From Amphiscolops sp. MND2022 (taxonomy: Eukaryota), in contig OZ076415.1 of assembly GCA_964187785.1 (NCBI GenBank), positions 48,794,001 to 48,858,000 of the forward strand: 64,000 nucleotides of DNA, written 5' to 3'. The translations under genes were made by a program, and so were the position numbers. Positions 27,432 through 63,200 of this stretch are shown in pieces. Within the stretch, counting starts at the first letter, position 1. Every line of letters starts with the position of its first letter. The notes under the pieces were generated by a model, which ran no database searches, was not told the origin of the DNA, and was given only the letters and a program-made list of their open reading frames with translations.

Positions 27432-27648
27432 TGTTGTATCTCGAATAGACTTAAAAGAAAGAGAATTCAATGTTAAAATTCAACTGTTCTGTTTCTATCC
27501 TTTTTCTATCTGTTAGAACAAAGTTTCATCTGCATTTATGTGGCAGGGCAGGTATTTAATATATGAATAACAATAGTATAAATAAACACAGACAAGAAAG
27601 CAGACTAAATAGTTTTTAGAGTCTAAATGAGTTCGTCTGTCCTCTACA
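27432..27648 (-). repeat. 3' LTR (217 bp)
   Basis: TGTAGAGG...ATACAACA on the minus strand. About 20 differences from the 5' LTR by hand count. Confidence 0.92.
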
Positions 27649-36670: not shown

Positions 36671-39600
36671 ATGCCTATTATTTTCCGCCCACATATAACG
36701 GGGAAGGAAAATGATAATATGCTTTTTTTCAATTTCTGCCAAACCTCCTCCCAGTTTCTTCGACCTCACCTATAGTTACTTGACTATTTTAGTTACTAGT
36801 AACCGTTACTGACTAAAATAGTCGAATAACTAAAACAGCTCAGAGGGGGGAATAATATCTAAAGTCAAAAATGGGAATAAGATCTAAAATTTCAGGACGG
36901 GAATAATATCTGAAGACAATATAAAGAGAAATATCACTAAATTCAAGATCTTATATTTTAAATCCTATTTCCCCTCCACAGCTATGGCTCAGTTGGTGAA
37001 GGGAAGAAGGCGGAAGATATGCCGGTGCTTAGCGGGCGTCTTGTTTCACACGAATTGTGATTTTAAGCCTTAAATCTTTACATCCATTTTTACACATTCC
37101 ACTGAGATCCTTCTCAATCCAGAAGAAATTTTCAGTATTCGTCAGCTAAAACATAGTGTCGACAGTGACAGTCTGTTCCTAGCTAAAAACGCAATAAAAT
37201 GTTTGGAAAATGGCAAGGGAAATGTATTGCTTGATACTTGATACCTGGGAACATGGACCTTGATACTTGGTCAAAATTCAGCATTACTGGGTACCAATTT
37301 CGATTTTTTTGAACAAAATATTTACGACTGCCAATGACTGGTTCAGGATTATTAGGAATTTGAGGACTTTCGGAAGCTGAAGTTAACCTTGGCAGTCAGT
37401 CCTTGGAATCCTTGAGTTATCCTGACTTAGGCCCACTGGAGTGTCTGTGTGGAAATTTGTTCATTGAAAATCATTTTTTCCGTCTTGATTCTGATTTGAA
37501 AACCTTTCACTATCACGAATATTGTTTCTCTGTGCAGTTTTTCTGTGAATCTTTGGATGCAACGCATATAACTTTTCCTCAAAATTGTATATCTCTCTAA
37601 ACTTGTGCCTCGACACGATAGCTCCTCAAAAGTGTTCTATCGATTGAGAGAAAGCAGAACGCTTTCTTTTGAAAACTTAAAATGTATTTATTCGGAACCG
37701 AAGCATGCCGGACTCAATCTAGCATGAAAGTTGAAAGTTTTATTTTCTTGAACGCTTATATAATCCAACATTTATCATAAAAATTAAAATTGAACATTTA
37801 AGCGGGACAGGGCATAATCAGCTCTTTGAGAGAACCAAATTCAGATCAACTCATCCTGATTCATTTGCTATCCGCAATCTCTTATTTCTACATAATATAA
37901 TTTTCTTTTTTTGTTTAATTAAAATGTATGATTCGGCTGTATTTTCAATTCTTTCAAAACATCCTGTAGAAAACTATTGAATGCGATGGTTAACTTATGT
38001 TTAAACTGAGATTGATTGGAATCCAATCGTTTGACGTAAGAATGAAGTTTTTCGTAGGGTTGAAGTGGATTTAACTATTGAAACAACTAAGAAATAAAAT
38101 TTAAACAGTCTGAATAAATTTTTTGGAACCAATTTTTTTCAAACTTTCGACTACACTAGGCGAGGTGAATCAAATATATGAAACGTTAAAATGAAGTTCA
38201 CTCACCAAGTTTTTGGGAAAAATAAGTTGGTGTTACGTAAAATCAACAGTAACCCGTTTCAGAGTTGCGCATAAGTCCTTTATAGTAAGGCTACTGTTAT
38301 CAGTGCCACGTGTCAGTTAATTCCATTTTCTTCACATGCGCAGCTGAACAACTACGTGTGTGTTTTTTGTTTCACCGTTAGCTGGCTGGTTTGATGAGTT
38401 CATCAAAAATTAATCAACTTTCAATGCATGCACATTTGGCACACATGAACTTATCCACGTTGTTCTTCAATCTGCTCCAGAGTAAGAATGGCAGTTATTC
38501 CGTAGAATTCGCCTGTAAAGTTGGACTTGTGTAATTTCGTGAAAATTGCGTGTAATCGGTTATCAAAATTGAATTGAAAGCTTCTTGTGGACATTCTAGG
38601 ATAAATTTCATCAACCGAATTGGTCACCTAGTGTTTAGGCTCTAGCCATTTGAAAAACTAGTTTTAGTCGAAGCCTTAGAATGAAACTGTCAGTTTTCGG
38701 GACATATTTAAATTATATCAAATTTTTACCTTGTCGTTCCAAATTCAATCTTGTAAAACGCTTCCAAATTTCCAACTTAAGGACTCCGACCGCGAATATC
38801 TGCAAACGCTGTCTGCAATTTCAGACCGGAATTTGTCCAGAAATTTCATTGAAAGTTTTGTCTTAATTTTATCATTGTTTTGTTTTTGTGAGGTTGAACT
38901 TTATATTTTACGTGATCTTTGTGCTTTTTTGAAGGATTCCACCCAGTACACCACATTTCGTGCACGGAATTTTATGATCTCATGTGATTCCATGAATGCA
39001 ATCAAATGGTTCCATGCGATTTCATGCTTGATAATGGTATGAAATTATCATATGGAACCATATGATTCCATGCATGAAATGGCATGGAATCCCATGTTGA
39101 GTTGGATCTGTTAATCGAATGAAAGCTTAGACGATGAGGCGTTATACGTTAAAGTTATAAGGTTAATTGAGGTGAGACCCTTTTAACTCCGAAAAGTGGA
39201 ACAAGGAGCATGCGGTGAAACCGATAATCCTTACTTTGTTCAAGTGGATACAAGACTTAGTAGAAATGTATACAGGTAAACCTTGTATTGCATTCCCTAG
39301 CATGAGAGTTCATAGTTAATCTGATCGTGTTTCGACCTCACTACGATAGTCGTGATGGTGCTGTGGAAAGTAATTGCAAACAATTTTCGGCACAAAATTT
39401 ACGTTAAATATTTTCTCAAAATCGTCAGAGATAAACAAAACAAAGATACAATTGTAAAATAATCTTTATAAAATCACAACAAGCCAGAACGGCATAACTC
39501 GGCGTCATATCTAAGGCTCAAAAATAGCAAAAGGACATGAAAGTGTCAAAAAACTCAAAGTATCAAACTGACAAAGAGAGTATCAAACTCACAAAAAACC

Positions 39601-39781
39601 CAAATGACGGAACTGGCGCGACAGATGCCCGCTAGCGCGGGCCCCTGGCGCACTAAAAGGGGAATCCTTTCGGATTTTTAAACATCCATTGTTGCAAAAA
39701 AATAATCATTGAAGGGGGACCCTTTGGTGAAAAAAAAATTCAAAAAAAGTCTCACAATGCCAAAAAAACTGAAAGGGTGGA

Positions 39782-39969
39782 AGTAGTGAGTAAAGGGGGG
39801 GGGTTTAGGTAGATTTTGAATCCTTTGCAACTTTTGCTAACATGAAATTTTGGTAGCTAGAATTATCAGCTGAGAGTGACAGTCATATGGCAACTGAATA
39901 CACAATGGACTAAACAAGTTTAACATTGACAGTTGGTTGACATTTGGCACACACAAAGTATCGATATTA
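39782..39969 (+). repeat. Maverick left terminal inverted repeat
   Basis: Reverse complement of 53641-53828. The outer ~66 bp are identical except G-run length (9 vs 10); about 13 differences overall. Confidence 0.95.
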
Positions 39970-40457
39970 ATGAATTCTATCATGGTTCTGAAATTGAACC
40001 CAAACCTAACAAAAGTGACACCGGTTGTCTATTTCCATTGATAAGATGTATTTGAAACTCAAATGAAACCACGCTTTATTGAAACTGAATCTTCTGAACC
40101 GAACTTTATCAAAACTTTCGAATGGAAAATGCTTCAACCTAAAGCACCAGTTTTAAACGAACCATTTTTTATTCCGAACTTTTCTTCGAAATGAAAACAA
40201 ATTGACTGTTCACTGAAAACAAGGTTTTAAAATGATCGAATTTCCGAAGAGGAGGCTTTCCTGAATCGAATTACAATGACTCGTTTTCGATTGAAAAGTT
40301 TTGCAAAAATGCAACAAAAATTGAAATGATTACTTTTGATAGAAACATTTTCTAAAATTGAAGTAAACTAGATTGAATCAATGAAAGCACAAAAATGTCA
40401 ATGCAAAAACCAATGAAGAAAGCCTTCTCTTTCAGGTATTCTTTCGAATGAAAGATC

Positions 40458-43400
40458 ATGCATCTGTGTGATACATGCGGAAAAGTCTTCACTTCTCGAC
40501 GGTTTTTGAATAACCATCTCAAAACGAAACATAACCAAAACTTGGTGGAGAACTCTACCTCATTCGAATGCGGAGAATGTCGCAGTCAATTCAACCGAAG
40601 CCACAATTTATTGAAGCATCTTAGAAATCAACATCAGTCTCCATCGGCTCACAGGTGTTTCTTTTGTTCCACATATTTTGCGCATGAGAAATCTTTGCAC
40701 TTTCATGAGAGAAAAGATCACGGCCTGAATGAAATAAAACATCAAAAAAAGAGAATCTTTTCCTCAGCCCCTGTTGAATTCACGACTAAAGCCATTAATG
40801 ATAGATTCAAAGTTCATCGCTTGAAAATTATGCGAACAGACTTGTGTATCGATCCATTCAATTATTTGATATCGAATCAACAGAGTATATTGGATTTTGT
40901 GAATGAGAAACTCAGTCAATCGTCCAATTTAAAGGTGGGAGTTAGCATTGCTGTTAAACTTGTGAAACCACTGACCAACGATGACATGACTGCTTTCTTC
41001 AATTCTCATTTCATGCGTTTGGCTGATCATATCACAGATGAAGAATATCACGTTCACGTAGACCAATTAATGTCCAATTTGAGTGTTTACGCATCCTGTG
41101 GATCTGGTTGGGTGATAGATTCTCTACTTTCAGTTGAAGTCAAAACAGCTACGTGCCAAATGGCCTGTGGATCTTCATACATTGCAACGCCAATTATTCT
41201 TAAAGGTCTTTCCCGCAGCTTGCTGAATATCAAGAACAAAAAGGACAACTTTTGTTTTCTTTACTGCGTGGCAGCTGCAATATTCTCTTTCATTGGTCGA
41301 CCCAGCCATCCTAGTAATCACAAGGAAAATGTGAGGCGACTGAAATGTAATTCTGCGCGAATGCCAATGCCCTTATCCAGTATTCCTACTTTCGAGCGGT
41401 CAAATGATGTTTCAATCAATGTCTATCAACTGGAAGGAAGGAAGTTGGTTGCTGTGTATTATAGTAAGCGAAAATCTTCGAAGCGACGAATTAACCTTCT
41501 GCGTTTGGTAGGGGGCTCCAACTCTCACTACTGCCTAATCACTAATTTCTCCAATCTTCTTCAGCGACTAACACGATCGGAGAGCAAACGTAAAAAAGGT
41601 TCAAAGTCAAAATTCTGCTCCAACTGCTTTCAGCCTATCATCAAGAAAAATTTCAGAAAACATTTCAAATTTTGTGAATCAAATTCTCCACTCGAAATTC
41701 GTATGCCGACGTGTGCTCCTTTTGTCGAGTTTGTCAATTGGCAGAAAACACAGAGAGTTCCCTTTATTGTTTACGCAGATTTGGAAGCAATTGATGTCCC
41801 TTCGAATCCATCTACCACTGTGGGAAGCAACACTAAAGAAATTGAAAAGCAGTTTCTCTGTAGTTTTGGTGCTGTTCTCATCGACGATAGAAGTAAGTTT
41901 GTCAGTATTAGGTTTTTCGGCATCAAAAATTTTCGTTTCACAAAAACCGTTCTGACCCAAAATTTTTGGTTTAGGTAACAGTGTTGTGAAGAAAGAGTTC
42001 TACAAAGGAAAAGACTGCATTCAACAATTAATGAAGTTGCTTCGGTCGTGGTCAACATGGTGTTTCAAAAAGAAACAAAAATGTAAAATTCTACGAATAT
42101 CCAAAGATGATAGAATTTCTCTACTGAACCAAGATGACTTGAGATGCTGTTTATGTGGTGAGGAGATGGAAGAAAGTCAACGGGTAATTCACCACTGTCA
42201 CCTAACTGGTGAAATATTTGGAGTAGCTCATTCCAAGTGCAACCTGCGTGCGAGAACAACAAATTTCCTGCCGGTATTTTTTCACAACCTTTCGCGTTAT
42301 GACGCTCATCATATTATTAAATACTTGGTAATCGAGACTGGTGAAAAGTTGTCAGCTATTGCTAAAAACGATGAAACTTATATTTCGTTCTCTTTGGATA
42401 TGCCCATGGAAAAATTTAAAAGCAAGAAGGGTCACGATGTCATTCAATATCATTCTTTACGGTTTCTGGACAGCTTCCAGTTTATGTCTCAGAGCTTGGA
42501 TTCTTTAGCTAAAACCTTGGACAAGCAAGACTTCAAGTTGTTGAAAGCATGTTTCCCAAACATCACTGAAAGTATCTTTGAAAAATTAACAAGAAAAGGA
42601 TTCTTTCCGTACAATTTTCTCGACTCCCTCGAAAAATTTGCAATGCCACTTCCACCTTATGGCCCTGACTGGTTCAACACCTTGACTCAACGTATTGAAA
42701 TCACCGAGCAAGATTATGGTTGTGCTTTGGAGATGTACAATGCTTTTCATTGCCAAAATTTAGGCGACTATCACGATATCTATCTGAAAAGTGATGTGTT
42801 CATCCTGGCCGACATTTTTCAAAAGTTCAGGGAGGTATGCATGCAAGTCTACAGGCTGGACCCAGCTCACTTTTATTCGGCTCCGAACCTGAGTTGGGAT
42901 GCCATGCTAATCACAACTGGCGTTAAAATGGAACTAATGCAGGACATTGATCAGCTGTTGTTTTTTGAAAAGGCAATCCGAGGAGGAATCAATGGTCTTG
43001 GTGCACTGAGGCATTTTGAAGCTAACAACAAGTATCTGGATAATTTCAATCCTGAAAAAGACGTTACTTTTGGGGCGTTTTTTGATGTAACATCTCTGTA
43101 CGCAGGAACAATGCAAATGGAAATGCCGCTCGGAGGGTATCAATGGTGTCCTGAAATTACTCTGAATGAAATTCTGTCTACGCCCAATGACTCTCCCGTT
43201 GGTTACTTCGTCGAGGTTGACCTCGTGTACCCTCCTGGAATACACGACTCTCATAATGATCTTCCATTGGCTCCGGAAAAATTAAAAATACCTAAAGAAT
43301 GGAAATCGGATTATGCCAAGTCATTTGGTTTGAATATGAGCTCGGCGAATGAAAAGCTTGTAGAGACCCTGCTCGACAAAAAAAACTACATTTGCCATTA

Positions 43401-44906
43401 TGAAAACCTAAAATTCTATGTCAAACACGGTCTTAAAGTCACGACTCTACACCGGGCGGTAAAATTTCAACAGTCAAAATGGTTGGGAACGTACATTGCC
43501 AAAAACACTGTAATGCGTAAAAGTGCCGCAAATGACTTCGAGAAAAACTTTTACAAGCTAATGTCGAACGCTTGTTTGGGCAAAACAATGGAAAATCTCA
43601 GAAGACGTAGTACTCTAAAGTTCGTATCAACGGAGACTCAAGCTGAAGCATTCATTCAACGGGCAACCTTCAAGAGTTTCAAAATCATCAGCAAAAATCT
43701 TGTTACTGTTTCTTTGAAACCCTCTTCAGTGGTATGGAACAAACCGACACCCGTTGGCGCGAGTATTTTGGATTTGTCAAAACTTTCTTTGTACAAGTTT
43801 CACTATGAGGAGATGCTTCCACGGTATGGAGCAGACCGGTTGAAAGTAGTGTACAAAGACACAGACTCCCTGCTTTATCGAATCAAAACTGAAGACTTGT
43901 ATAAAGATATGGCCACATTCAAACATCTACTGGACCTCTCGGATTATCCTGCTGATCATTTTCTCCACGACAAAACCAACAAAAAAGTACCATTAACAAT
44001 GACGGATGAACTCAACGGAAAAGTTTTAAAAGAAGTTGTCTGTTTGAGATCTAAATTGTATAGCATCGATTACGTGGGAGGAACCAAGCAGAGTGCTAAA
44101 GGCGTTCAGAAATCTGTCAAAAAAACGCTACATCATAATTTATTCGAGGATTGTCTACTTTCTCAATCAACAGTACGTAGAAAGATGATTCAACTCAAAT
44201 CAGCCAGTCATCAAATAATTGTCAACTCTGTCAACAAGGTTGCTTTGAGCTGCTACGATGACAAGCGCTATATTTTAGATGACACGGTATCCTCCCTTGC
44301 ATATGGACATTATTCCTTGAAATCGTCTAGTCGACTAACGAGTGAGTAGACTTCTACATTGGGGAGATGTGAATGGTCTTTCGAGCAAAAAAAAATTTGT
44401 TTTTTTTGTAGGTCAAAGTGATTCGTCTGTTGATTCTGATGCATCCAATGATTCTTTCGACGGTGATGCTTCAGACATTGAATCTGAAACCGACGAGGAG
44501 GTTGGTAGTGGTGCTGATACTTGCTCTCTATCCAATACAATGAGCCCATCTGCTAGCAACAGCTCTCCTTGTGCCAATCATTGCAGTGTTCTAGCTCAGG
44601 CATGGAGCTCTGTGGAATATAGTTAGTTTTCATACAATACCTTGTACTAATCGATAAACTCGACGAGTGTGAAACGAAGATGTTTCAATTTCAGCTGCTC
44701 CAGATCCTGGATTCTTTCTCAACCAAACAAGCGGCGAGAATTCTGACCATGAAGCTCAGTGTATCAATTTTGAAACCCTTACCGATGATGAAGTTTCTGA
44801 TTCCGATGCTACACGTTTTGCCTGTCCCTTCATAGACTACGAGGCTACTGAAAGTGATGTAAGCCCTGATGATGAACCTTCCCGTAAAAAGGCTTGTCAA
44901 AAGTAA
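40458..44906 (+). CDS. Protein-primed family B DNA polymerase (pPolB) with N-terminal C2H2 fingers; predicted 4 exons, 1407 aa
   Basis: Exons 40458-41892, 41975-44341, 44412-44621, 44695-44906 (total 4224 nt, in frame). ExoI YADLE, ExoII FHNLSRYDAH, ExoIII YLKSDV, PolA FDVTSLY, PolB KLMSNACLGK, PolC YKDTDS. EndoVII-like insert CCLCG...IHHCHLTG...AHSKCNL. Intron 1 is required to join the domains; introns 2-3 are inferred (without them the protein ends at TAG 44349). Confidence 0.9.
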
Positions 44907-44976
44907 AATTCAACTGCCAATGTATATGCAAGGTTCTGTAAATCTTATATGCATTTACAGGTTTGATACCCATCAG

Positions 44977-45582
44977 TCATGTTACTTTATACATCAACAT
45001 CGTTTTACAGTGATCATTACAAAATAAAACCAAATCGATTTCTTGCATTTGTTTTAGCGGTTCCAACAAGGTTACAAATTGAGAGTGAAAAGTCTCCAGC
45101 TTGATAGAGTGTTGATCAGCTAGACGCATCAAGTAATGAGCCATGTGAAGACAATGCAGACCGCAAGTGTTTGAATGCGATGTTTGCAAAGGAAACTTGA
45201 TTTCAAAAATTTCTCCAGTGCCAATCTTTTTGAAAAGTGTCATCAAATGTTCAAAAAATGAAGTGTAATTCTGAATAGGTTTTCCCAATGGGTCCCATAC
45301 ACAAAAAAGTGTTCTCAATTGCCTCTTGAGGAACACTTGCGGTCTCAATATGAATAACAGCAACCAATGCTGTCCAACAGCTCCTACTGGAGATGTGTTA
45401 ATTATGAAATAAGAGTGCAAAAACAACGTCTGAAAATCTTTGCTACTTGTATTAACAGTCTCATTCTTCATCGCCAGTGACGGTAATGAGAAATTGTTTG
45501 CCGACCAAACACCAGCAAATTTAAATCGCGAAGATGCACAGCAGTTTTTAGCCAAGTCTGTAAGTGTAAAGTTATCCATCAT
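44977..45582 (-). CDS. Adenain-like (Ulp1/C5 family) cysteine maturation protease
   Basis: GQHW (His), WDPLG (Asp), PLQ...SNTCGLHC (Gln/Cys). ATG at 45582 overlaps the MCP stop (ATGA). Confidence 0.9.
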   Translation of the reverse strand: MMDNFTLTDLAKNCCASSRFKFAGVWSANNFSLPSLAMKNETVNTSSKDFQTLFLHSYFIINTSPVGAVGQHWLLLFILRPQVFLKRQLRTLFCVWDPLGKPIQNYTSFFEHLMTLFKKIGTGEIFEIKFPLQTSHSNTCGLHCLHMAHYLMRLADQHSIKLETFHSQFVTLLEPLKQMQEIDLVLFCNDHCKTMLMYKVT

Positions 45583-46949
45583 TTGCTCCGGCAATTTTTT
45601 CGTATATTACGCCCAGAGTCAATAAATACTTGACTGAATCGTTCACCAACAAGAAAAAGTTCCACAGGATCCGTTAAGGCTTCTGAAAAATCCAACTTTA
45701 GAGTGAGGCCACCTCCAGTGAGTTCCGGAAAAAGAGTGAGCGTCTTGCTCGCTTCTCTCGACGAGGTTAAATCGAAAACTAGGAAAAAGTGGTCATCTTC
45801 AAAGTCTGCCATTCCTATTCCATTCCCGCCAGTCTCAAAACCTAGAGCACAAATGGTGTTGTAAAAAAGACGGGTGCAATTTGTAGTCCTTATGGGTGTC
45901 CCAGCAATGGGAACTCCATTGCCGCGCTGAATTTCAACTTTACTCAGGTTGAATTTTTTGTACGGCGTGCATTCAATTGTCGATCCCCTGAAAAACTTGT
46001 TTCTCACCATGCACAACGTCAATCTGCGGATGGGTTCTGTTCCAAAAATGTTTTCCTTCACAAAACAATTTTGTCCAGCCTGGATTATAAAGCTCTTGTT
46101 CAGGCTCTCGATGTAAGGATAAACAGCGTCACTTTTCAACAGAGCTTTTTCTATGCTGACTCTAACTGAATCAGACAACACAATTTTGTTTACAAACAGG
46201 GATGCCTTTTCAATAACTACAGAGAAAGGCGCCTGATCGATTCGTTTGATGTCATCCGCAGTCCATGTTCCTACACTTTCGAGAGCGCAATTGCTCGGCG
46301 ATATGTAGAACCGCAAATGGAGTGAAACCCCAGGCAAAAGTAATCGCTCACAATCCAAAAAATCAATATGCGGCGCGCCATAGAGCTCAATTTTGAATTC
46401 TTCGCCTTTTCGAAAATTGTCCAGCTGCTTCATCTTTAGTTCTTCATTAGACTTTTCATTCGCTCTGTAGTGATAGCCTTGACATTGAGCCCAAGTCATT
46501 TTGCTGGCAATGTCCGTTGTAAGTTCAGTTTCGATGTAGGCCAAATGATGATAATTATTGTTGCTGCTGGAAACCAATTTTCCATCGAGAAAGAGCTCCA
46601 CATGTGAAAATAGAGAGTGTAAAATGTTATTTGCAAATGTGAGGTCCACGTCTGCAGGTTTAATTTTGTCTTTGCCATCTGGTCCGTAAATGCACACCTC
46701 CAAAGCCAGACAAAGCCTGTTCAAATCTATACAATTTTTGTTTTCAGCTGAAACGACAAAATCCAGTTGGGGCCCGCGACAGCCCACGTGGGGAAACACT
46801 TCCTGATCAAATGAACCTTCATAATTGATCAATACAGTCGGTTGCTCGAAAAAGTCCAAAGCACTGTGCGTTACTGGTCTGGCAATTTCCGACGCTTGAG
46901 TAAACAAAGTGCCCGTTGTGCCATTGCTGCTTCCACTATTCATTGGCAA
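45579..46949 (-). CDS. Major capsid protein (double jelly-roll, Maverick PY/hexon-like)
   Basis: 456 aa intact. LDFFEQPTV...LDFVV...IDL, FANNILHSLFS.VELFL, LYGAPHIDFLDCERLLLPGV, FLVFDLT motifs are typical of Maverick MCPs. Position between the core protein and protease also fits. Confidence 0.88.
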   Translation of the reverse strand: MPMNSGSSNGTTGTLFTQASEIARPVTHSALDFFEQPTVLINYEGSFDQEVFPHVGCRGPQLDFVVSAENKNCIDLNRLCLALEVCIYGPDGKDKIKPADVDLTFANNILHSLFSHVELFLDGKLVSSSNNNYHHLAYIETELTTDIASKMTWAQCQGYHYRANEKSNEELKMKQLDNFRKGEEFKIELYGAPHIDFLDCERLLLPGVSLHLRFYISPSNCALESVGTWTADDIKRIDQAPFSVVIEKASLFVNKIVLSDSVRVSIEKALLKSDAVYPYIESLNKSFIIQAGQNCFVKENIFGTEPIRRLTLCMVRNKFFRGSTIECTPYKKFNLSKVEIQRGNGVPIAGTPIRTTNCTRLFYNTICALGFETGGNGIGMADFEDDHFFLVFDLTSSREASKTLTLFPELTGGGLTLKLDFSEALTDPVELFLVGERFSQVFIDSGRNIRKNCRSK

Positions 46950-46959
46950 AATAGAAAAG

Positions 46960-47451
46960 TTAGGCGAAGTTGACGTTAGAAAGAATCTCGGACCGACTTC
47001 TTTTGGCTGACTTCTTTTTAGAAATGGTCGCCAATGGTCTGCTAGCAGTGCTTGTAATCTTATCTTTGCCTTTTTTAGTAGCCGGTGAGCCCGAATGACG
47101 CGAAGGCCCGTTCGGCGCCGCTTCCCGGAGCGTGACCTTGGTCGTCGCCGTGCCGCCGTCGGTCATCATTGTTTTCATTGCACTTTTTTTCAAAGTGTCT
47201 TTCAAAGCTTTGCGAGGTCTCTTTCTCCCGGAAACAACGTTTGACAGTTCAGGAACAAAAGCAGAAACTAAGTTTTTTCCAAACTCTTTTGCAACTGGCA
47301 ACACATATTTTTTCACAAGAGGTACCGCTACCCTTCCCATACGCATGGCAAAAGCGCCCATTCCACCGGATCCAAATTGCCTCGCCGGGCCGCCAAATGT
47401 TGTTTGATGATGACTTTGCAGTCGAATTTGAGAATCGTAATGAGCATCCAT
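46960..47451 (-). CDS. Basic core/membrane-lytic precursor protein (Maverick pX/pVI-like)
   Basis: FGGPARQFGSGGMGAF (QxGxG protease site), then an amphipathic helix and a Lys/Arg-rich C-terminus. Confidence 0.7.
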   Translation of the reverse strand: MDAHYDSQIRLQSHHQTTFGGPARQFGSGGMGAFAMRMGRVAVPLVKKYVLPVAKEFGKNLVSAFVPELSNVVSGRKRPRKALKDTLKKSAMKTMMTDGGTATTKVTLREAAPNGPSRHSGSPATKKGKDKITSTASRPLATISKKKSAKRSRSEILSNVNFA

Positions 47452-47494
47452 ATAGCGACCGCTTAGTGTGATGACTTTGACCAGAATGGAGCTC

Positions 47495-48396
47495 TCAGCG
47501 TTGGCGAAATTGAAGAGTGATGTTGGTGCGGCCGCGACTTAAAAAAGGTAACAATTGGCCAGACTCACTGCGTAAGGAAATTGTTATAGATTCGATGCTC
47601 GATTTGACTATTCGTCGCCATTGGAGATTGGTAAATGTTTGATAGTTTAGATATTGTTGCCCACGGTGTTCACTTAGGAAATTGCTTAGTGGAATTGCAC
47701 GTAGTAACGCAGTCTGTGAGTCTCCCAAAATTTCGTTTTGCACTAAATTGCAATAGAGAAAGATTGTGTTGCACCCACCGCTGATATCGATTGGAAACTT
47801 GCCGACAGTCTTTGATTTCATAGGGCTGGTTCTCGAAGTTGAACTGCTCTCCTTACAATCAATGACCGTTTTCAGTCCCAACACGTTTTGCAAATCGTTT
47901 GTTGTAGCTTCCAATAGGATGCAATCACGTTCGCTACCATCAAAACAAACCTTCAATGTTTGTGAAGATTTGTCAACCTTCCATGTAACTGGCAATTTTG
48001 CTGCAGCATTTGGAAAGACTTTTTTGAAAATGCTCTCCAAAATTTGGTCGACAGTCGAGTACAATCCTGGTTTAATGCTACAGGTCCTCTCTTCAATATG
48101 ATCTTCAATTTTAGGAGGGGTGTACATTGTCACTAGGCCATACGCCCTCTTGCGAGTTTTTTTACCTTGTTCCTCTTTATCATCTGGTTGAGCTGGCCTC
48201 AGCTGGTACTTGAATTCGCCGCAGGTAATGTTTTGAATTGCTGAAGGCCACGAAATTTCAGACACTGCTACTTCCCACGATCCTGATAAGGAGAGCTGGT
48301 GTGGTAGTAAAGTTGTGAATTGTGCCAGCGTATTGTTTGGAAACGTTGCCATTGAGGCATTGACACTAAATTTATTGTGAAGTCTTGGGATTGCAT
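47495..48396 (-). CDS. Minor capsid protein (penton, single jelly-roll) with a 1-nt frameshift near the N-terminus
   Basis: FPNNTLAQFTTLLP...WEVAVSEI, FLYCNLV..EILGDSQTALLRAIP, IESITISLRS...LLPF. Upstream ATG at 48396 reads MQSQDFTINLVS; adding one A at ~48360 restores LVSNASMATFP. Confidence 0.85.
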
Positions 48397-48426
48397 TTCC
48401 ACCAGTTTGTTCAAGGAGCTTCCGAG

Positions 48427-49641
48427 TTATAGAGGAGATTCTTCGAATGTTGTTAGTTCAGACTCATAAAATTTCCCAAGAATCAACTGATTGTTGGCGT
48501 CCCTAATCGTATAAGTGGGAGGGTTCAGTGTTTGTACTGTGGCTATCGTGAAAACCTCCTCAGTGAACTGAATGCGGTACCCTCTATGAAAAGTCTCAAT
48601 TTTTCGTTTTATTCTCACTTGCTGGCCAATGTGAAACTTTGGCCGAAGAGGGGTATTAGTGTTTTGCAACGAAATCAAATATGGAACATCGCATTTGCGT
48701 ACTTCCTTTGGAGCTAGCTTGGTGACACGATTAACTCGGCTGTTGATGACGTCCACGAATTGTTGCAGGTTTTCTACATAAGTATCGGTGTTGTTTTCGT
48801 GCAAATACTTGAATAAAATTGCCTTCAGTGATCGAATATTGCGCTCTGCAAACGCTGACTTTGTTTCGCTGTGCGTGGAATAAATTTGGATGTCATTATC
48901 AGTGCAGTATTCTGAAAATTGTCCTGCAAACTCTCGACCTTTATCTACCCAAATTTTTTCAGGCTTCAAGAAAATTGCGCAATTTGTTGAACAGAATTTA
49001 GGCTTCAAAGGGTTTGATTTATTCTTTCCTCTGGAGTTGAGATTGTTAATAATGGATTGGAGAGCATTTTTACATTCGATGGCCGTTTTTCGTTTCAATG
49101 GCATTGCCCAAACAAACCGACTCAGGGTGTCAACTGCTACCAGGATGAAGTTTACACCATGGTTGTGTCGTGCCAACTTTTGCATGTCTGCCAAGTCAAT
49201 GGACCAAATCTCATTCAACCGGTAGCTTTGAACTTTCAATCGGAGAAAACGATTGCGCGTTTGTTTAAACTTGGAATAAGTCTCGCTGCGGTTGAGATAG
49301 TTGTCAACTTGTTTGAATGTGCATTTGGAAGTCTGTTTGAGAGCAGTTCGACTGCCAAAAGCAGACGGATTGTTGCAGGATGTGTAAAGGTTATGCAATT
49401 TGCTATGTGCAATGATTTCTTCTGTTGGCTGGACCAATCGTCTTGTCGCTGAACATTTTGTGCATAGAAAGGTTTCGTTTTTCTTGTAATCCTTCAACTG
49501 TTTTAGGCCACTGCACGCAAAGTGGACCCATCCACATACGTTGCACCAGACTGAAGGATGTTGTCGAGAACCTCGACCCAATTCCTTGGCACAATTTCCA
49601 CAAAAATATTTTGTTTTAGGTTTTCTTCTAGTTTTATACAT
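48427..49641 (-). CDS. Retroviral-like DDE integrase with N-terminal PHD-like zinc finger
   Basis: WSIDLADM (D), WVDKGREF (D), AERNIRSLK (E), and Maverick C-terminal F..G..VRI/FTEEVF/GKFYESEL motifs. N-terminal CGNC...CNVC.WVH..C...CTKC. ATG at 49641. Confidence 0.92.
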   Translation of the reverse strand: MYKTRRKPKTKYFCGNCAKELGRGSRQHPSVWCNVCGWVHFACSGLKQLKDYKKNETFLCTKCSATRRLVQPTEEIIAHSKLHNLYTSCNNPSAFGSRTALKQTSKCTFKQVDNYLNRSETYSKFKQTRNRFLRLKVQSYRLNEIWSIDLADMQKLARHNHGVNFILVAVDTLSRFVWAMPLKRKTAIECKNALQSIINNLNSRGKNKSNPLKPKFCSTNCAIFLKPEKIWVDKGREFAGQFSEYCTDNDIQIYSTHSETKSAFAERNIRSLKAILFKYLHENNTDTYVENLQQFVDVINSRVNRVTKLAPKEVRKCDVPYLISLQNTNTPLRPKFHIGQQVRIKRKIETFHRGYRIQFTEEVFTIATVQTLNPPTYTIRDANNQLILGKFYESELTTFEESPL

Positions 49642-49696
49642 ATTCCGCGGTAAGATCAACTGTCGGGAACTGAGTTAGGCGTAAAAGTGATTCTTG

Positions 49697-50368
49697 CTAA
49701 TATAAACGCAACCATTTAGCAGTTGAGGAACTTCCAATCTTTTCATCCAAATCATTTTCTTCGTGATAGTGGGCGATTTCTGATGCAACACGTTTTGCAT
49801 TTGTATTAGCGATCAGAAATTCTGGTATCCGGATTCTCCTGATCAGTTCCAAAGCATTTTCACTCAATTTCTTCGTGGTCACCTGTAGGTCATTCAAAAA
49901 ATCGAAAATTGGTATGTTTACGTCTCGGTCGTGCATAAGTAATCGACCAGAGTTTGAATCAATCGACACATCCTTGGTCTGATCAATTTTTTGCAAGATT
50001 TGTCTCGATCGCTCAACTTTGCCGCCGGAAAGTCCCGAGGAAAGCAAATCGAGCACAATCCTGTCCGTTTTCGCAAGAGTCTTAGCCTTGTCGGATATGT
50101 CTTCATCAGCAGGAGCGCTCCTTTTGGGTGGAGCTTGCAATCTCGAGTTCAAATTGATTTGCGTGCAAGTTTTTTCCGCATTTGTTTCTTGCTGTTCGCA
50201 ACTGGTTCTTTTGTCAACGTTCGGCAGGATTGCTTGTGGGAAGGATTCGCTGAGATTCGCGATGTCGGATTTTGCGATTTCTGATTTGGTAGTTTTCAAA
50301 GACAACAAGGATATGTATTCGTCCAGTGTTATCAGAACGAATTCTTTGGTGCTACTGCCCGATATCAT
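49697..50368 (-). CDS. Conserved Maverick protein of unknown function (223 aa)
   Basis: N-terminal FVLITLDEY and C-terminal IFDFL.DL / IPEFLIAN resemble the conserved ORF upstream of Maverick integrases. Intact and overlapping its neighbour. Confidence 0.6.
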   Translation of the reverse strand: MISGSSTKEFVLITLDEYISLLSLKTTKSEIAKSDIANLSESFPQAILPNVDKRTSCEQQETNAEKTCTQINLNSRLQAPPKRSAPADEDISDKAKTLAKTDRIVLDLLSSGLSGGKVERSRQILQKIDQTKDVSIDSNSGRLLMHDRDVNIPIFDFLNDLQVTTKKLSENALELIRRIRIPEFLIANTNAKRVASEIAHYHEENDLDEKIGSSSTAKWLRLY

Positions 50369-50684
50369 GGCGTTTCATCAAATGATTAAGAATTGAACGT
50401 TCTATCAGATGCAAAAGTTTTAATCCATTTTTAGATGCCAACGACTGACGTTTCTTGACAATTTTGTTACTCTTTGCACAAAGAAAGTCTATCAGGCTTG
50501 TGAATTTCTCCAATTTCTTGCGGGAAACATTTGATGCCATTTTGATTTGGCCATGAACCACATTGAAAAGACAATTGCAGAAAAACTTTATTATTTCGTT
50601 CGAGCAATGAAGTAAAAACGTTTGTTTGACCACAGGTTTCATATCAATGAACAAATCAAGCATATAAAAGTTTCGTCGACTCAT
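50352..50684 (-). CDS. Conserved small basic Maverick protein (110 aa)
   Basis: IIKFFCNCLFNVVHGQI...KKL..F..LI..L pattern, typical of the small ORF downstream of Maverick ATPases. Confidence 0.65.
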   Translation of the reverse strand: MSRRNFYMLDLFIDMKPVVKQTFLLHCSNEIIKFFCNCLFNVVHGQIKMASNVSRKKLEKFTSLIDFLCAKSNKIVKKRQSLASKNGLKLLHLIERSILNHLMKRHDIGQ

Positions 50685-51357
50685 TTTCTACAGTTTCAGT
50701 TGTTTTAGTCGTAGAAATGTAAAACACAGAAGGTTTGTTGCCTGAGCAGTCTGTAGAATATTTGAGTTTGGGGTCCACCTGTGAATCCAAGTCAATCAAC
50801 AAATGACCGAAAGGCCTTAGTGTAGCTCTTTTATATGCCTCCAATAAAAGCTGTCGATCGCCCATTTGTCTTCCCAACACGCCAATTTGTTCAATATCGC
50901 GAGGGCTCTTGAAGAGTATCATTTGCGTAACGTTCAAGTCTATAGTTTTTGAATTTTTTGCTGGTTGATAGAGGTTGTGCTTTAGTATCATCAAGTGAAT
51001 ATTGCGATGGCGTCCTGCGACAACTAAGCTCAAAAATGCTTTGTCTTCACATGCATCTTGATACAAATCATCGATTACAACCAACGTTCTCATCTTTTGC
51101 GCCTCACACTTGTCGACGGCAGACCATTGGAGACCTTGATGGAATTCAATTGATGTTCTGTCATCGGATGCCCCAAGCAATAAAGATTGATAATGATCTT
51201 GGAAGTGGTTGTAAAAATATAGGATTTTATCGAAGGATGGCTTGAAAATTTTCCGCTGATTCTGCAACATTTGCGACACGAGTTGAGTTTTCCCGCAACC
51301 TCCAGGGCCAACAATTGAAATGAAACAGTGAGGACTTGTATTAATTCTCTTATTCAT
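50656..51357 (-). CDS. A32/FtsK-HerA family genome packaging ATPase (233 aa)
   Basis: Walker A GPGGCGKT, Walker B LVVIDD, GRHRNI arginine finger and ILKHN motif. ATG at 51357 overlaps the upstream stop (ATGA). Confidence 0.93.
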   Translation of the reverse strand: MNKRINTSPHCFISIVGPGGCGKTQLVSQMLQNQRKIFKPSFDKILYFYNHFQDHYQSLLLGASDDRTSIEFHQGLQWSAVDKCEAQKMRTLVVIDDLYQDACEDKAFLSLVVAGRHRNIHLMILKHNLYQPAKNSKTIDLNVTQMILFKSPRDIEQIGVLGRQMGDRQLLLEAYKRATLRPFGHLLIDLDSQVDPKLKYSTDCSGNKPSVFYISTTKTTETVENESTKLLYA

Positions 51358-51647
51358 GCTCTTGGACTCGGAATGATGTATCCAATACAAGCTGACAGTA
51401 ATGCTAAAACGCCGGAATGATAATGAGTTTGAGAGCTGAGCGCTAAGTACCCAATACTGAATAGAACAACTGCAAAAATTATTGAGTAGTGAAAAAGAAG
51501 AATGAAAAGTGTTCTGTTGCAAGTACTTTTTCTGAAACAGCAACAATTCAATTCGAATGGCGATCTTTCCCGGTTTTGGTCGTCAAAAATAACGGCTCCA
51601 ACATCCAGTGCATCAGCAAAATCCCCTTCGCTGGTTGCTTTTGTCAT
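51354..51647 (-). CDS. Small two-helix membrane protein (97 aa)
   Basis: CCC cluster, hydrophobic segments TLFILLFHYSIIFAVVLFSIGYL and GVLALLSACIGYII, C-terminal PSP. ATGA overlaps at both ends. Confidence 0.7.
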   Translation of the reverse strand: MTKATSEGDFADALDVGAVIFDDQNRERSPFELNCCCFRKSTCNRTLFILLFHYSIIFAVVLFSIGYLALSSQTHYHSGVLALLSACIGYIIPSPRA

Positions 51648-51895
51648 TGTTCTTGGAAAAAGTTTATATGATAGGGATTAATGTTTAAAACAAAGTTGAT
51701 AACTTGGTACAGCCTTTGCAAGTCGGTCAAATTTAAATGAATCCGATTCAAAGTCTGTCGACTTTTTGTACTCGGAATGTTCGACTGCTCTATGCAAACA
51801 AGAAGCGTTTTTGGAGTCAAGCGAGCTGAAAAATTGGTAGTGGGAGAGATGGGAAGTGAAATTGAAGTTTCAACGTAAGAGCGCACGACTGACAT
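51644..51895 (-). CDS. Small 83-aa protein, possibly PC4-like ssDNA-binding fold
   Basis: ATG-started and coupled by an ATGA overlap. Beta-rich N-terminus then RIHLNLTDLQRL helix. The fold is a guess. Confidence 0.45.
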   Translation of the reverse strand: MSVVRSYVETSISLPISPTTNFSARLTPKTLLVCIEQSNIPSTKSRQTLNRIHLNLTDLQRLYQVINFVLNINPYHINFFQEQ

Positions 51896-51922
51896 CTGAG
51901 CAAGCTGGATCGGTAATGAACG

Positions 51923-52339
51923 TCAAAGCAAAAACTTCTCGTATTCCGTAGTCCTGTATATCTTCATATGCAGCCAATAAGCTAATCCTGTAAAGTGTCC
52001 GAGTAACATATTGTTCGTGAAAATTGGTTTATGAGATAATGCATATACATAACCCGGACCCAGATCGAAATTGCTTTTCATGAAACCGAACGCATCGTGA
52101 AATATTGCATGAAGTCGGAAGATTTTGAAATGTTTGAAATATTTGTCCAATATACTATTTCCGGGACCTATTAGACCGCCAAATTCTGCCATGTCATTAA
52201 TGTCCCACAAATTGACATCTTTATCAATACAGTAGCAAACTGCCAGGAATGCGTTTTTTCTCAGTGTATTTCTTGGAAAAAGGTAACTAACTTCGCCCAA
52301 AGCAGTTTGCAAATCACTAGCGGAAAAAATAATTTGCAT
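51923..52339 (-). CDS. Phospholipase A2-like protein (parvoviral VP1u/adintovirus PLA2-type)
   Basis: LIGPGNS Ca-binding loop followed by LHAIFHDAFG with the His-Asp dyad. Confidence 0.65.
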   Translation of the reverse strand: MQIIFSASDLQTALGEVSYLFPRNTLRKNAFLAVCYCIDKDVNLWDINDMAEFGGLIGPGNSILDKYFKHFKIFRLHAIFHDAFGFMKSNFDLGPGYVYALSHKPIFTNNMLLGHFTGLAYWLHMKIYRTTEYEKFLL

Positions 52340-52404
52340 TTTGAAAGATTTATTTCATCCAAATTAAAGCAACTGTTTCTCAACAGAAATTTTTGATAAA
52401 TGGT

Positions 52405-53280
52405 TTAGGGAAATTGTGAATTCTCATCAATGAATGTGAACAAATCAGTGGTGTAGTTTATGTTCACTTTTTCCTCGACATTATCAGTTTCCGAGTTTTG
52501 ACCTTCAACACATTCAATGCATTGGCATTGAGCATCTGAAAATCCCAAATCCACTGACAGAACATTGTTGTGATGCGAAGCGTGGATTGTCCCAAAGCCT
52601 CGCTCAAGCAGCTCTATAAAGTCCAGCACACTGTCTTTGAATACCGTTTGGGACCTCTGCAGCTCAACTAATCTTTGGCTTAGAAAAAAAAGTTTTTCAG
52701 AGTCTTCTCTATCATTGAATGGAGTGTAGCAGCTCCGTTGCAGCTCCCAAATCAAGTTGAAATTGCATCCCAAATCAGGGGTTGGTTTCGAATTCAAAAT
52801 TTTTTCCAGTTTCTTCCCGTGAATGAATAAATTGTTTCCGCTAAGACGGGCCTCAGTTAGGAGACAATTCTCTGGGTAGGAAATTTTGAATAACTTTACT
52901 TGACTATTCGTCACTTTCAATGTCTTCTGGTTGCCCAGATATTGGGCACCCAATGTTTCTTTAATGAACTTCTCTGCGCCCACGAATGACTTGATGTATA
53001 GGAGAATATGGAAATGCTCTCCCTGGATAGTTGAACAAAGATCTGCTTCCGTTTGCTCAGCTACTCCATGGCGTCTGATGCTGTACTCGCAGTGAGTGTT
53101 TTTCAGGAGTTTCTTAATAAATCGGCAAAGATTTTCTGGAAATCTGTTTTGAAGCTCATCTGCAGGTTTGCATTTTTTATAGGGTGGCGATTCCTGATGA
53201 TTACTAGCCAACCTTTCTTCTTCAGTGAAGAAAACCAAGTAATAGAAATGAGGAGGAATTTCGCGTAAGACACTTGACAT
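52405..53280 (-). CDS. 291-aa protein with HUH-like motif, function unknown
   Basis: Intact ORF from ATG 53280. FYYLVFF strand and QGEHFHILLY motif. Confidence 0.6.
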   Translation of the reverse strand: MSSVLREIPPHFYYLVFFTEEERLASNHQESPPYKKCKPADELQNRFPENLCRFIKKLLKNTHCEYSIRRHGVAEQTEADLCSTIQGEHFHILLYIKSFVGAEKFIKETLGAQYLGNQKTLKVTNSQVKLFKISYPENCLLTEARLSGNNLFIHGKKLEKILNSKPTPDLGCNFNLIWELQRSCYTPFNDREDSEKLFFLSQRLVELQRSQTVFKDSVLDFIELLERGFGTIHASHHNNVLSVDLGFSDAQCQCIECVEGQNSETDNVEEKVNINYTTDLFTFIDENSQFP

Positions 53281-53640
53281 GATGGAGCTGAGGAACCAAA
53301 TGGCGTTCAATTTGGAAGGAAAATGGTTCGGATATCTTATCTCGGTTATGTAACTTTTCCTTTAAAATGGAGTTTTCCGTCCAAAACCGAAGCTGTTCCT
53401 AGCACAGTGTAACAGCGTGTTTTGGTTGTCGCTAACCGGTATTTTTCTGAGGTAATCCAAATTCTGTGCTAGGAACTTTCAGCAACAGTCAATTTGGCAA
53501 AATGGTCAAATTTCGGCAAATTGGTTAAATTTACAGCTCCCTTTATATTACTGGGTATCGCTTCTGACACCTTATATGGTAAGTTTCACATTCACCTTCG
53601 TTTTGATTTCAGTTCAAGGTTATAATAATAATAAAAGATC

Positions 53641-53828
53641 TAATATAGATACTTTCTGTGTGCCAAATGTCAACCACTGTCAACGTTAAACTTGGTTAGT
53701 CCATTGTGTACTCGGTTGTCATATAGCTGTCACTCTCAGCTGATAATTCTAGCTACCAACTTTTCATGTTAGCAAAAGTTGCAAAGGATTCAAAATCTAC
53801 CTAAACCCCCCCCCCTTTACTCACTACT
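53641..53828 (-). repeat. Maverick right terminal inverted repeat
   Basis: Ends ...ctttactcactact followed by TSD ggtgga. Confidence 0.95.
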
Positions 53829-56800
53829 GGTGGACCCTTTGGGGTTTTTTTCAACATCCTTTCTGTCGCAAAACATCAAAAAAGTGAAGGGGGGCCCTTT
53901 GGGGATTTTTTGCGAAAAAAAAATCTCAGTGCCGAAAAAAACTGAAAGGGGGCCCTTTAGTTTCTCCCGGTATTGTGTGTTATACGGAAAAAGAGGAAAA
54001 ACCTTTTTGGTTCAGTTCGCTAGGCAAATGATACAGTTAGGGACCATAAAATTTGGTAGAACTTTTAAGAACTATTTTGGTCAGATTGTGTGGACTGAAA
54101 AAAAAGAGTCACTATAATAGTCGCGTTTCACTTCATGAAGCGCCGACTAAAAACTCAAACAATTAGTGAAAACTTATTCATGTAAACTGAACAGTATTTA
54201 GATTACATAATTGTTTCTTCCCTGGCAAAGATGGTACATAATTGTGTTTCTTCCCTGGCAAAGGTGGTCAATTAGCCTTCTTTCCTTTGCTATGTACTTT
54301 CAAAAATGAACGAAAAGTTGTTGATTCAGCCAAAAGTTGCACAATTAAAAGTAGCAACATTTTTGTATTCCAGCCACAAGTGTCTTGCTGAAGATGTCTT
54401 CTTGTTTTCATCGGAATCCAACTATTTTCAGATGAAAAGGGAGTGCTTATTTGGAAAAAACTTGTATGTTGAAATGAGGAATCTTGAGGCAAGAGAAAGG
54501 TCGAATATCCAATAAGGTGACAATTGTCTGAAGTTTTTCGACAAATTATCCATACTCAGGAAGGATTTCACGTCAGCACAAACTCAGAAAAAGCAGACAG
54601 AGAAAATTAGTTCAATTTTCAGTAGCTTTTTACTAAGGTCTCAGATGAAAGGCCACACCGGACGGCCTAGTGGTTAGGCCTGATTGGTCCAGTTGTGGTC
54701 AGAGGAAAGATATGAGTCATGGTGCAGTCTCCAGATACATATTGACCGAGTTTGACAGATTTTCATTATCAATGATTACATTAGGCAAGATGAAAAAATC
54801 AATGCCTTTTTGTTGTAGGCGTCTTCAGATTTTTTTCAACTTTCTTACCGAAATCTTTTTTGAAGCGTGATGTTCTCATACCTCTCCACATGTTTTGCAT
54901 CAAACAAATCATTGTAACCCCTAAGATTCCAGAAAACGAAATCAGCTACACATTTTTTGTCACCAGTAAGGAAAATTTTGTTTTAAAACCATATAACAAC
55001 TATTTTCAAAACCGATCATTTGGCAACATTTCTGATTTCAACCAAATATACAAAATCAGCTATTCAAATACGGTTCGAAAAAACGATTTTCAATCGCAAA
55101 TCGTACAATATTCAACGATTCAGCCAGACTTTAAAGAACGGTAATTGGTCCCATTTTTATCAGCAAACATGCGCAGAAGCCCACTTCACTGTTTTTAGTT
55201 CAAAGTAGAAAAAGCTTTGAAAAACATGTTTCCCTAACCACCGTGTACATACAGAATAACAAAAGTAAACTCGAACGCAAAAAACTTGAATACAATCGGT
55301 TCCACCGAAAAAAACATAAGCGAAGTAGAAAGGTGATGTGGCATATAAACTCTATGAGAAATAACTGGAGTCATTCGTTGTAGCAGATGAGCTGAATTTG
55401 AGACGGCAATTACTTGAAAAATCGAAATACAGAAAAAAATGAAAATTCATCACTGAACTACGTGGTATCGATAAATCAACAACACTCTCGAGTCTCAAAA
55501 ACTCATTTGGAGAAGTCTTAAATTCTCTCCCGAGCCTTTTATATTTCCTAAACTATCGTTTCTCTAACCTCGGCATGTTTTGAGAATGAGGACGCTCAAA
55601 TGCTAATAACATAGAAACCTAAAGTGTTAGAAAAGTCTTCTCTTTCGGGTACAACACTAATAAGGACAGTTCTGAGGCCTTGAGGAACCTAAACGGAAAC
55701 AAACTTCCGATTCGATCCAATTTACCCGCGCGGCATTGAAAGACGAAGCGCCGGTTCTAGCTAAACAATTTGTTGTTCATTTTTCGTTTTTCTCAGAAGC
55801 AAAAATCTTAGTTTTTCTTCATTACTGTCGCCAATAGATACTAGATGCTGGAAAAAACTTTTTAAAAATTTTCGTTTGGGGCTTAGGGTAAACGGGAGTT
55901 TCTTTGTCTGGTGATGGGGCCTAAGAAGTAAGAGTTAGAGGGTTCAATTGCCTTGCTAGACCAAAACCTTTCAATCCTTAAAAAAGTACCGGAAAGTCCA
56001 AAGAGTCTCCCTATTCCCTATGGGGTTGTCAAGCGATGTGCATTTTTCGAAAGGAAAATTTTTTGATTTCCAGGGAGGGGAACGCGGAAGCAGTTCAGGA
56101 GAAAAGTCGAGTGTTTTGGCGCTGCGACTCGATTGCGGAAAGTTTTATGAATCGTTTTCAGTTAGAAACACGTTTTCGAGCCAGGAAGGTCACTTCTTTC
56201 GTTCATGTCGGCAGTTTGTGAGTTATGTTTCGAATCAACATTTTCGAAGCAAAATCACAAATTTGGGTTTTTAATGTTTTGAGTAAATAAACTCACTCCC
56301 GAAAAAGTCACTTTTGTTTCAAATTTTATCGAAATTGCTGAACCCAAAGTTTGAAATGAACCATAATGCTCGGAGATTTTAATTTCAGTCAAACATGTTG
56401 TGGTTAAGCCCTTGTGCCTTGCATTGTGTCGAATTGAATTTAACTTCTCTAACTCACCATTTTCGGGCCTTGAGCAAATCCTTATTTCCATGCTTGGGGG
56501 TATGCTCAAGACAAAACACAGTTCTTGAAAGCAACAGAAATGAAAAGAGCAACAGCGTTGAGACCTTTGTGAACTTGAACCACGCATCTCGTTGAAAACA
56601 CAGCTTCAAGCTGACCCACTACTACTAAACTACAAAGCTGCAAATATGGTACCAAACGTTGCAATCAGAAGTGATGATCCCAAAAAGGTATCGACTTAGC
56701 AAAGCGTAAATGCTTGTTCGGCGTCAACGCAGCAAAACTAACAAAGATCTTTTTCTTTGCAAGTTTTGACTGTTTTCTGCTATTGGATTGCAGTCTTTGA

Positions 56801-62681: not shown

Positions 62682-63200
62682 TTTTAGTCGGCGCTTTTTT
62701 TAAATAAGAAAAGAGTCTACTATAGCCGTGGCTTTTCGTCACTGTTTTTTTTCGATACACCTAAGTGGCCAAAATAAATCTACCAAAACTCCTAAAAAAT
62801 TTAGAGGAAGGCCCCAAATTGTACCTGTTGGCATAGGGACTGAACCAAAAAGTTTTTTTTCTTTCCGCGTAACATACAAAACCGGGTGAGACTAAAGGGT
62901 CTCGTTTCAGTTTTTTCGGCATGGTGAGACTTTTTCAAAAAAATCCCCAAAAGGGTCCCCTTCATTTTTTTTGGAGTTTTGCGAAAGAATGGATGCTGAA
63001 AAATCCCAAAAGGCCCCCCTCGTTTTTTTGGCATTGTGAGACTTTTCAAAACAATTTCTGACTAAAGGGTCCTCCCTTCAATTTTTTTGATGATGCGACA
63101 GAATGGATGAAAAATCTCAAAGCTTCCCCCTGGCGCGCCAAGTCGGTCCATTTTTTGGGTTTTTCGGGTACTGTAGAAGAGAATACTTTGAAGTCCTTTC
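62682..63200 (-). repeat. HINE-like repeat copy, truncated by LINE copy 3
   Basis: Begins ttttagtcggcgctt and contains aagggtcccctt units. Breaks off at tttgaagtcctttcgctatt where the RT fragment starts. Confidence 0.65.

Follow-up and report, generated by a model that had tools for sequence, protein, structure and literature searches.

The polymerase gene of a probable acoel Maverick

The window analysed here is a 64,000-nucleotide stretch of contig OZ076415.1 from Amphiscolops sp. MND2022 (GCA_964187785.1). It contains a Maverick/Polinton of 14,047 bp (39782-53828) that begins with AGTAGT and ends with ACTACT. Counting its DNA polymerase gene, pPolB, once, the element carries 13 genes (Table 1), and its replication and capsid gene set is complete, with the minor capsid named by position and an N-terminal motif. 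The pPolB gene lies in two large open reading frames (ORFs) in different frames, at 40458-41978 (506 aa) and 42031-44349 (772 aa), followed by two small putative exons downstream. It matches PF03175 in Pfam well above the cut-off of 25.8 bits (E=4.7e-22, 79 bits). From its sequence we strongly infer that pPolB is a four-exon gene, with three introns that all fall in phase 1 and have 33-34% GC. The part of exon 1 that follows the zinc fingers presumably comprises the terminal-protein and vOTU region and the start of the exonuclease, as in the domain order of Polintons. A weak Pfam match to Endonuclease_7 lies at the start of exon 2 (42091-42250; E=6.4e-5, slightly below the cut-off), as in many pPolB relatives.

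Intron 1 and its history

The full-length homolog P0005 spans the first gap, with residues 1-479 ending at 41894 and residues 479-1265 resuming at 41974. Because P0005 is colinear across the gap, zero residues are lost over the 82-nt GT-AG segment. With its GT-AG ends, branch-like site, pyrimidine tract, colinearity and conserved position, the segment has the features of a U2-type intron. Its GC content is 33%, compared with 40% in the adjoining coding DNA, and no second copy of it occurs within the window. An independent metagenome contig, L001, the sole related locus found among metagenome contigs, is 70% identical at the nucleotide level and has a 111-nt intron of other sequence at the same codon, which retains GT, CTAAC and TTTAG and contains in-frame stops. 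A programmed frameshift at this gap was ruled out, since the L001 insert of 111 nt is in frame and holds stops.

The same junction recurs among relatives. The 5' part of pPolB has 56 homologs, of which 23 fall short of the junction and 33 reach it; 26 of the latter break there (at S in 17, at G in 6 and at C in 3), five continue through and two are ambiguous. Each of these three residues can be encoded by a codon ending in GT. Among the 14 listed sisters of the 5' ORF, six have a length of 506 or 382 aa and share the intron-derived tail at their end, and in relatives that are 64-79% alike the 3' ORFs start directly after the site.

We followed the split label on a tree of 23 database relatives, one well-covered representative per lineage, made up of 21 of the 42 rows of an earlier tree plus P0528 and P0542. 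The 42-row tree, likewise of database relatives and run in quick mode, gave the same picture. Two changes are required on the 23-row tree, and the approximately unbiased (AU) test rejected the grouping of all intron-1 carriers in a single clade (p=0.005). As read from these sequences, the history of intron 1 is either a single gain together with a precise loss or two separate gains at the same codon. The lineage of P0005, P0332 and P0542 is nested among the intron-1 carriers, precisely lacks intron 1 and appears to retain intron 2.

Putative introns 2 and 3 and the C-terminal tail

The apparent ORF gap at 44350-44977 contains the putative introns 2 and 3. Intron 2 holds the stop that closes the unspliced frame (44347-44349), exons 3 and 4 are free of stops, and removal of both introns would append an acidic tail to the C-terminus. 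Comparable tails occur on relatives: nine fetched pPolBs have PDPG/PDPGF and/or PFIxxEA in their C-terminal tails, several as plain ORFs, and the tails of six of these nine match exon 4 by tblastn (E=6e-5 to 5e-3). In 13 polymerases of the clade (P0001-P0007, P0010, P0011, P0017, P0036, P0153 and P0542), S or G occurs 7-9 residues past YGHY and is followed by a stop or by drift, which fits a common donor at intron 2; in P0032 the site is shifted earlier.

For intron 3, a related cluster provides a view of both the unspliced and the modelled product. Six raw ORF calls stop at '...SSFGC', and three RefSeq models (XP_075250921.1, XP_075241726.1 and XP_075245649.1), which have a model junction at the intron 3 position, go on into the PDPGF tail. 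The RefSeq family of these models, from Convolutriloba macropyga, is unbroken at sites 1 and 2, so that intron 3 looks to be the oldest of the three.

State of the copy and its family

The element belongs to a young multicopy family. Ten of its genes were looked up and fall in clusters of 24-57 members that are mostly 98-99% alike. Identical copies of some window proteins occur on 6, 9 or 13 contigs, which indicates a recent spread of the family. The comparison with the listed sisters, 14 for each gene and 10 for the 772-aa ORF, covered 3,670 residues, of which 17 (~0.5%) are private to the window copy. Among the sisters in the protease cluster, eight were fragments of the major capsid protein (MCP) and six were true proteases. 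The protease, ATPase, 291-aa and 163-aa genes have zero private changes. Seven private substitutions lie in pPolB, one of them within motif B. At the 5' end of the penton gene, ~15 codons are out of frame with the remainder, whereas 8 of the 14 sisters listed retain the longer N-terminus. Near residue 327, two residues that occur in all 14 listed sisters are missing from the MCP.

The preliminary description of this DNA had reported a full-length Maverick/Polinton with exact termini, terminal inverted repeats (TIRs), a 6-bp target-site duplication (TSD), 13 ORFs and one penton frameshift. The ends, the TSD, the core genes, the gene order and the out-of-frame 5' end of penton bear this out, and a fairly recent integration is supported by the private-residue count and the proteins shared by up to 13 contigs. 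The same description held the element to be intact apart from penton and perhaps able to form particles. The first claim fails on the pPolB pieces in different frames, the two-residue MCP deletion and the motif B change. The second finds no support for the window copy in view of the penton, MCP and motif B lesions, and particle formation by this copy is unlikely. The element also falls outside the definition of an intact Maverick, with uninterrupted and intronless ORFs, in the accessible text of PMC8097293, owing to the penton frameshift, the MCP deletion and the split pPolB. The family is active or was so until recently, and the window element is one of its recent insertions, by now slightly decayed.

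Element ends and surroundings

GGTGGA abuts the element on both flanks, an arrangement with a chance of ~1 in 4096, and together with the AGTAGT/ACTACT TIRs this 6-bp TSD conforms to the termini of Polintoviricetes. The TIRs are 188 bp long and 93% alike (176 identities, 11 mismatches and 2 gaps), and in their outermost 66 bp the sole difference is the length of one G run. At 7%, the TIR mismatch was ruled out as an age clock, being far above the 0.5% of private change seen in the genes; an inherited asymmetry is the likelier source.

The insertion target is a host repeat of AAAAAACTGAAAGGGGG-CCCTTT-like units (39600-39781 and 53829-54120). The left flank is matched by a paralogous host repeat near 62740-63130, which 7 bases later goes on to match the right flank. 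As this paralog is continuous across both flanks, it fits a clean insertion, with no sign of the assembly chimera that had been named as a possible refutation.

The surrounding elements had been described as riddled with stops. That holds for the long interspersed nuclear element (LINE) at 6548-10236 and the long-terminal-repeat (LTR)-type element near 27500-29300, both of which are fragmented, and not for the LINE at 19351-23182. The latter has ORF1 and an endonuclease/reverse-transcriptase ORF2, whose pieces of 316 and 645 aa are separated by one stop, and it is younger than had been implied. At 687-3430 on the minus strand lie exons with GT donors that, judged by eye, we take to belong to a host WD40-repeat-like gene; the Maverick and the LINEs may sit in its introns. 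A 413-aa ORF without introns, which has a hydrophobic anchor at its N-terminus and one other cluster member, lies at 11693-12967 on the minus strand.

Other genes of the element

Besides the PF03175 PolB, the element has the remaining core genes of Polintoviricetes, namely an rve integrase, an A32-like ATPase, a cysteine protease and a double jelly-roll MCP. The integrase matches Pfam rve (PF00665) with E=1.4e-6 and 28.9 bits, against a cut-off of 32.6; we accept the assignment because the DDE residues are visible and the TSD fits. Its PHD finger scores E=0.019 in Pfam, under the cut-off. The MCP has no direct match in the Pfam scan of the window proteins. The order integrase-minor capsid-163 aa-MCP-protease, and ATPase-110 aa-223 aa, is that of vertebrate Mavericks. 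The PW, PM, PZ and penton labels rest on position, without a library match, and penton, which has no Pfam or PHROG match, is presumably the minor capsid gene by an N-terminal motif. The 138-aa protein is presumably PLA2-like by its motifs; it has no match in Pfam, PHROGs or a PDB sequence search. Of the PLA2X of Alpha adintoviruses, a PLA2 with a pX-like tail, it offers the PLA2 motifs. PHROGs gave nothing useful for 10 element proteins, a phage collection held no match to the MCP, and scans of viral contigs with pPolB, the 291-aa alignment and the MCP found no relative.

Table 1. Features of the Maverick, with coordinates in the window
Feature	Position	Strand	Basis
Left TSD, GGTGGA	39776..39781	.	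sequence
Left TIR, AGTAGT start	39782..39969	+	TIR alignment
pPolB exon 1, C2H2 zinc fingers	40458..41892	+	Pfam zf-C2H2; P0005 residues 1-479
Intron 1, 82 nt, phase 1, GTAAGT...CTGAC...TTTAG	41893..41974	+	colinearity, relatives
pPolB exon 2 with exonuclease, palm and motifs A, B, C	41975..44341	+	PF03175; P0005 residues 479-1265
Putative intron 2, 70 nt, phase 1, GTGAGT...TTTTGTAG	44342..44411	+	splice signals, phase
pPolB exon 3, acidic, Ser-rich, stop-free	44412..44621	+	sequence
Putative intron 3, 73 nt, phase 1, GTTAGT...TACTAAT...TTTCAG	44622..44694	+	signals; RefSeq model junctions
pPolB exon 4, PDPGF and PFIxxEA tail motifs	44695..44906	+	tblastn of relatives' tails
Adenain-type cysteine protease, 201 aa	44977..45582	-	Pfam Peptidase_C48 (PF02902), above cut-off
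Major capsid protein, 454 aa	45579..46943	-	Atlas 0.98 to double jelly-roll cluster PF21738
163-aa basic protein, place of vertebrate PW	46960..47451	-	position, synteny per PMC8097293
Minor capsid (penton) gene	47495..48396	-	position and N-terminal motif
rve integrase, 404 aa, N-terminal PHD-type Cys4-His-Cys3 finger	48427..49641	-	Pfam, sequence
223-aa protein, place of PZ	49697..50368	-	position
110-aa protein, place of PM	50352..50684	-	position
A32-like packaging ATPase, 233 aa	50656..51357	-	Pfam Pox_A32 (PF04665), above cut-off
97-aa protein, hydrophobic stretches	51354..51647	-	ORF; 13-member cluster
83-aa ORF	51644..51895	-	ORF
138-aa PLA2-like protein, GPGN loop and HD pair	51923..52339	-	motifs
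291-aa clade-wide protein, His71 and His89-x-His91 (HUH-like)	52405..53280	-	alignment, model
Right TIR, ACTACT end	53641..53828	-	TIR alignment
Right TSD, GGTGGA	53829..53834	.	sequence

The 291-aa gene probably encodes an HUH-type single-strand nicking domain, as judged from its alignment and a predicted model. The protein has 23 homologous clusters at 47-99%; the H-x-H is retained in 18 of the 20 rows that cover it and His71 in all 20, and Tyr135 is nearly invariant, outside any YxxK motif. Folded as a single sequence it reaches a pLDDT of 37. The alignment-based model (mean pLDDT 56) predicts a small alpha/beta domain in which strands 64-71 and 89-96 carry the His residues. A profile search of representatives with the family returned 100 proteins, all of them unnamed, and gave no link to any named family. 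Three results weaken the HUH assignment. The Atlas link to Rep_OBD (Rep origin-binding) clusters is weak at 0.80, for a model with a mean pLDDT of only 56. A wide PDB fold search gave no HUH protein in 50 rows, with a best VIA Z of 7.2 to generic alpha/beta folds. BFVD gave none at E<=0.001, its weak rows running from E 3e-3 to 6e-2, several of them named Rep or parvovirus NS.

A probable host-spliced polymerase

We consider it very probable that the window element is a recent, slightly decayed Maverick copy and that the pPolB of its family is a four-exon gene with inherited introns, transcribed in the nucleus and spliced by the host. The element was inserted into the host repeat by an rve integrase, with a 6-bp duplication. 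Host RNA polymerase II would transcribe the polymerase gene in the nucleus, and the host spliceosome would process the transcript; the resulting enzyme would measure ~1,400 aa and end in an acidic tail. The introns would travel with the element and would be old, not accidents of the window copy. Protein-primed copying from the ends and re-integration form the established model for Mavericks, and this family would likewise use protein-primed synthesis from the element ends followed by re-integration by the integrase. Mobilisation of the window copy itself would require proteins supplied by its sisters. We speculate that the PHD-type finger of the integrase reads chromatin. The introns, being of the same phase, and the stop in intron 2 may also permit alternative isoforms. 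It is a less likely extension, and on balance an improbable one, that this acoel lineage ceded control of replication to the host spliceosome, through a short polymerase ended by the stop in intron 2, a tailed polymerase or an exon-skipped terminal-protein product, with a lineage-wide HUH nickase making a single-strand cut to release or resolve the element. Adenoviruses splice their replication unit in a similar way; for the cut, no Maverick protein is known to perform such a step. Polintons are described as replicating by protein priming, with a fused terminal protein and a vOTU protease, in the accessible part of 10.1101/2024.03.18.585575.

Several observations weigh against the four-exon gene. 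The DNA of intron 1 was read in two copies, the remainder coming from ORF ends, and that of intron 2 in the window copy alone. P0549 has D, not S or G, at the intron 2 site. The RefSeq XP_ models are predictions and come from a family ~59% alike (the P0015 cluster), and the homologs are not independent, many probably originating from one or a few assemblies. These points leave some room for a gene in which only intron 1 is real and 44342-44906 is a separate, decayed small acidic gene of an oncoid-like kind. Such accessory genes occur in adintoviruses, according to the accessible text of PMC8502044; most distant pPolBs stop directly after the GHY motif, and the unspliced frame closes with a stop of its own at 44347-44349. 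Yet in the nine fetched pPolBs PDPG and/or PFIxxEA are fused to the polymerase, and signals and phases fit at introns 2 and 3, so that we regard a separate gene as quite unlikely. That the pPolB gaps are disabling insertions, in a polymerase-dead family copied in trans by uninterrupted relatives, strikes us as barely credible. Uninterrupted relatives of the same clade do exist (P0005, P0332 and P0542 at site 1) and splicing is deduced from DNA; against this, both pieces are open and conserved across families 41-99% alike, splice signals are kept while the interior and length of the insert vary (82 vs 111 nt), and exon 4 retains the tail motifs.

The lesions of the window copy can be read differently, as assembly errors in an essentially intact provirus able to make particles. 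All virion genes are there, four genes are unchanged with ~0.5% private residues overall, and many sister ORFs are likewise truncated, as error-prone assembly would give. The three lesions are separate, however; the MCP deletion is found in 0 of 14 listed sisters, and, like the motif B change, it would be atypical of single-base indel errors, which makes an intact provirus very unlikely.

The completeness of the window element is ordinary; its most unusual trait is the lineage-wide, probably spliced polymerase. Inherited introns in a core replication gene would imply transcription and processing in the host nucleus, not borrowed cytoplasmic machinery of giant viruses. ORF-based screens would class the whole lineage as dead and 'polymerase-fragmented' and overlook the C-terminal tail of pPolB, and some high-copy 'defective' Maverick families elsewhere may merit re-examination. 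The splice junctions offer a simple RNA marker of Maverick expression, and Convolutriloba relatives are in laboratory culture.

Comparison with known systems

A literature search that did not extend to Repbase, supplements or most subscription journals found no account of inherited Maverick pPolB introns or of acoel Mavericks, and the accessible parts of PMC10748475, 10.64898/2026.10.13.758929 and PMC13650328 contain nothing on inherited pPolB introns. The accessory genes had been called an unrecognised combination. This stands in part: outside Repbase and supplements we found no description of a PHD-integrase or an HUH gene in animal Mavericks, whereas the PLA2-like gene has been described already. 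PLA2-like genes are a trait of Alpha adintoviruses (accessible text of PMC8502044) and occur in group 2 Maverick-Polintons (accessible text of bioRxiv 10.64898/2026.06.19.733378). Both groups, within Polintoviricetes, share with the window element a PF03175-type PolB, adenain, rve integrase, packaging ATPase and PLA2-like gene. The class of pPolB and the PLA2-like gene point to an Alpha adintovirus or group 2 type, from which the element would differ in its spliced PolB and its HUH-like gene, the latter without mention in the accessible text of either paper.

Vertebrate Mavericks, of which 134 intact ones are on record (Barreat and Katzourakis 2021, PMC8097293, as far as its accessible text goes), resemble the element in their (AGT)2//(ACT)2 ends, 6-bp TSD, size, gene blocks (int-minor capsid-PW-MCP-protease and ATPase-PM-PZ) and two inward-pointing modules. 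In contrast to the three introns of the window pPolB, intact vertebrate elements are described there as lacking introns. The window element also has ATPase-PM-PZ on the integrase strand, a PHD-type finger on the integrase, and PLA2-like, membrane and HUH-like accessory genes. Nematode Mavericks (accessible text of bioRxiv 10.1101/2022.07.12.499685) likewise have a full core gene set in an invertebrate, but their core genes are stated to be intronless, with introns in cargo genes only, and they carry a fusogen, a gene that was not seen in the window element. Dinoflagellate Maverick-like proviruses (accessible text of PMC11957031) share spliceosomal introns in full-length elements; theirs are mostly young introner transposons gained after integration, whereas those of the window element appear inherited, at fixed sites in diverged families. 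The closest named pPolB is XP_075240282.1 of the acoel C. macropyga (53%), a mobile-gene match that makes an acoel host probable. The Maverick polymerases of this species (XP_075240282.1, XP_075250921.1 and others), annotated as uncharacterized proteins, are unbroken at introns 1 and 2, unlike the window gene, and share with it the same acidic tail and a join at the intron 3 position.

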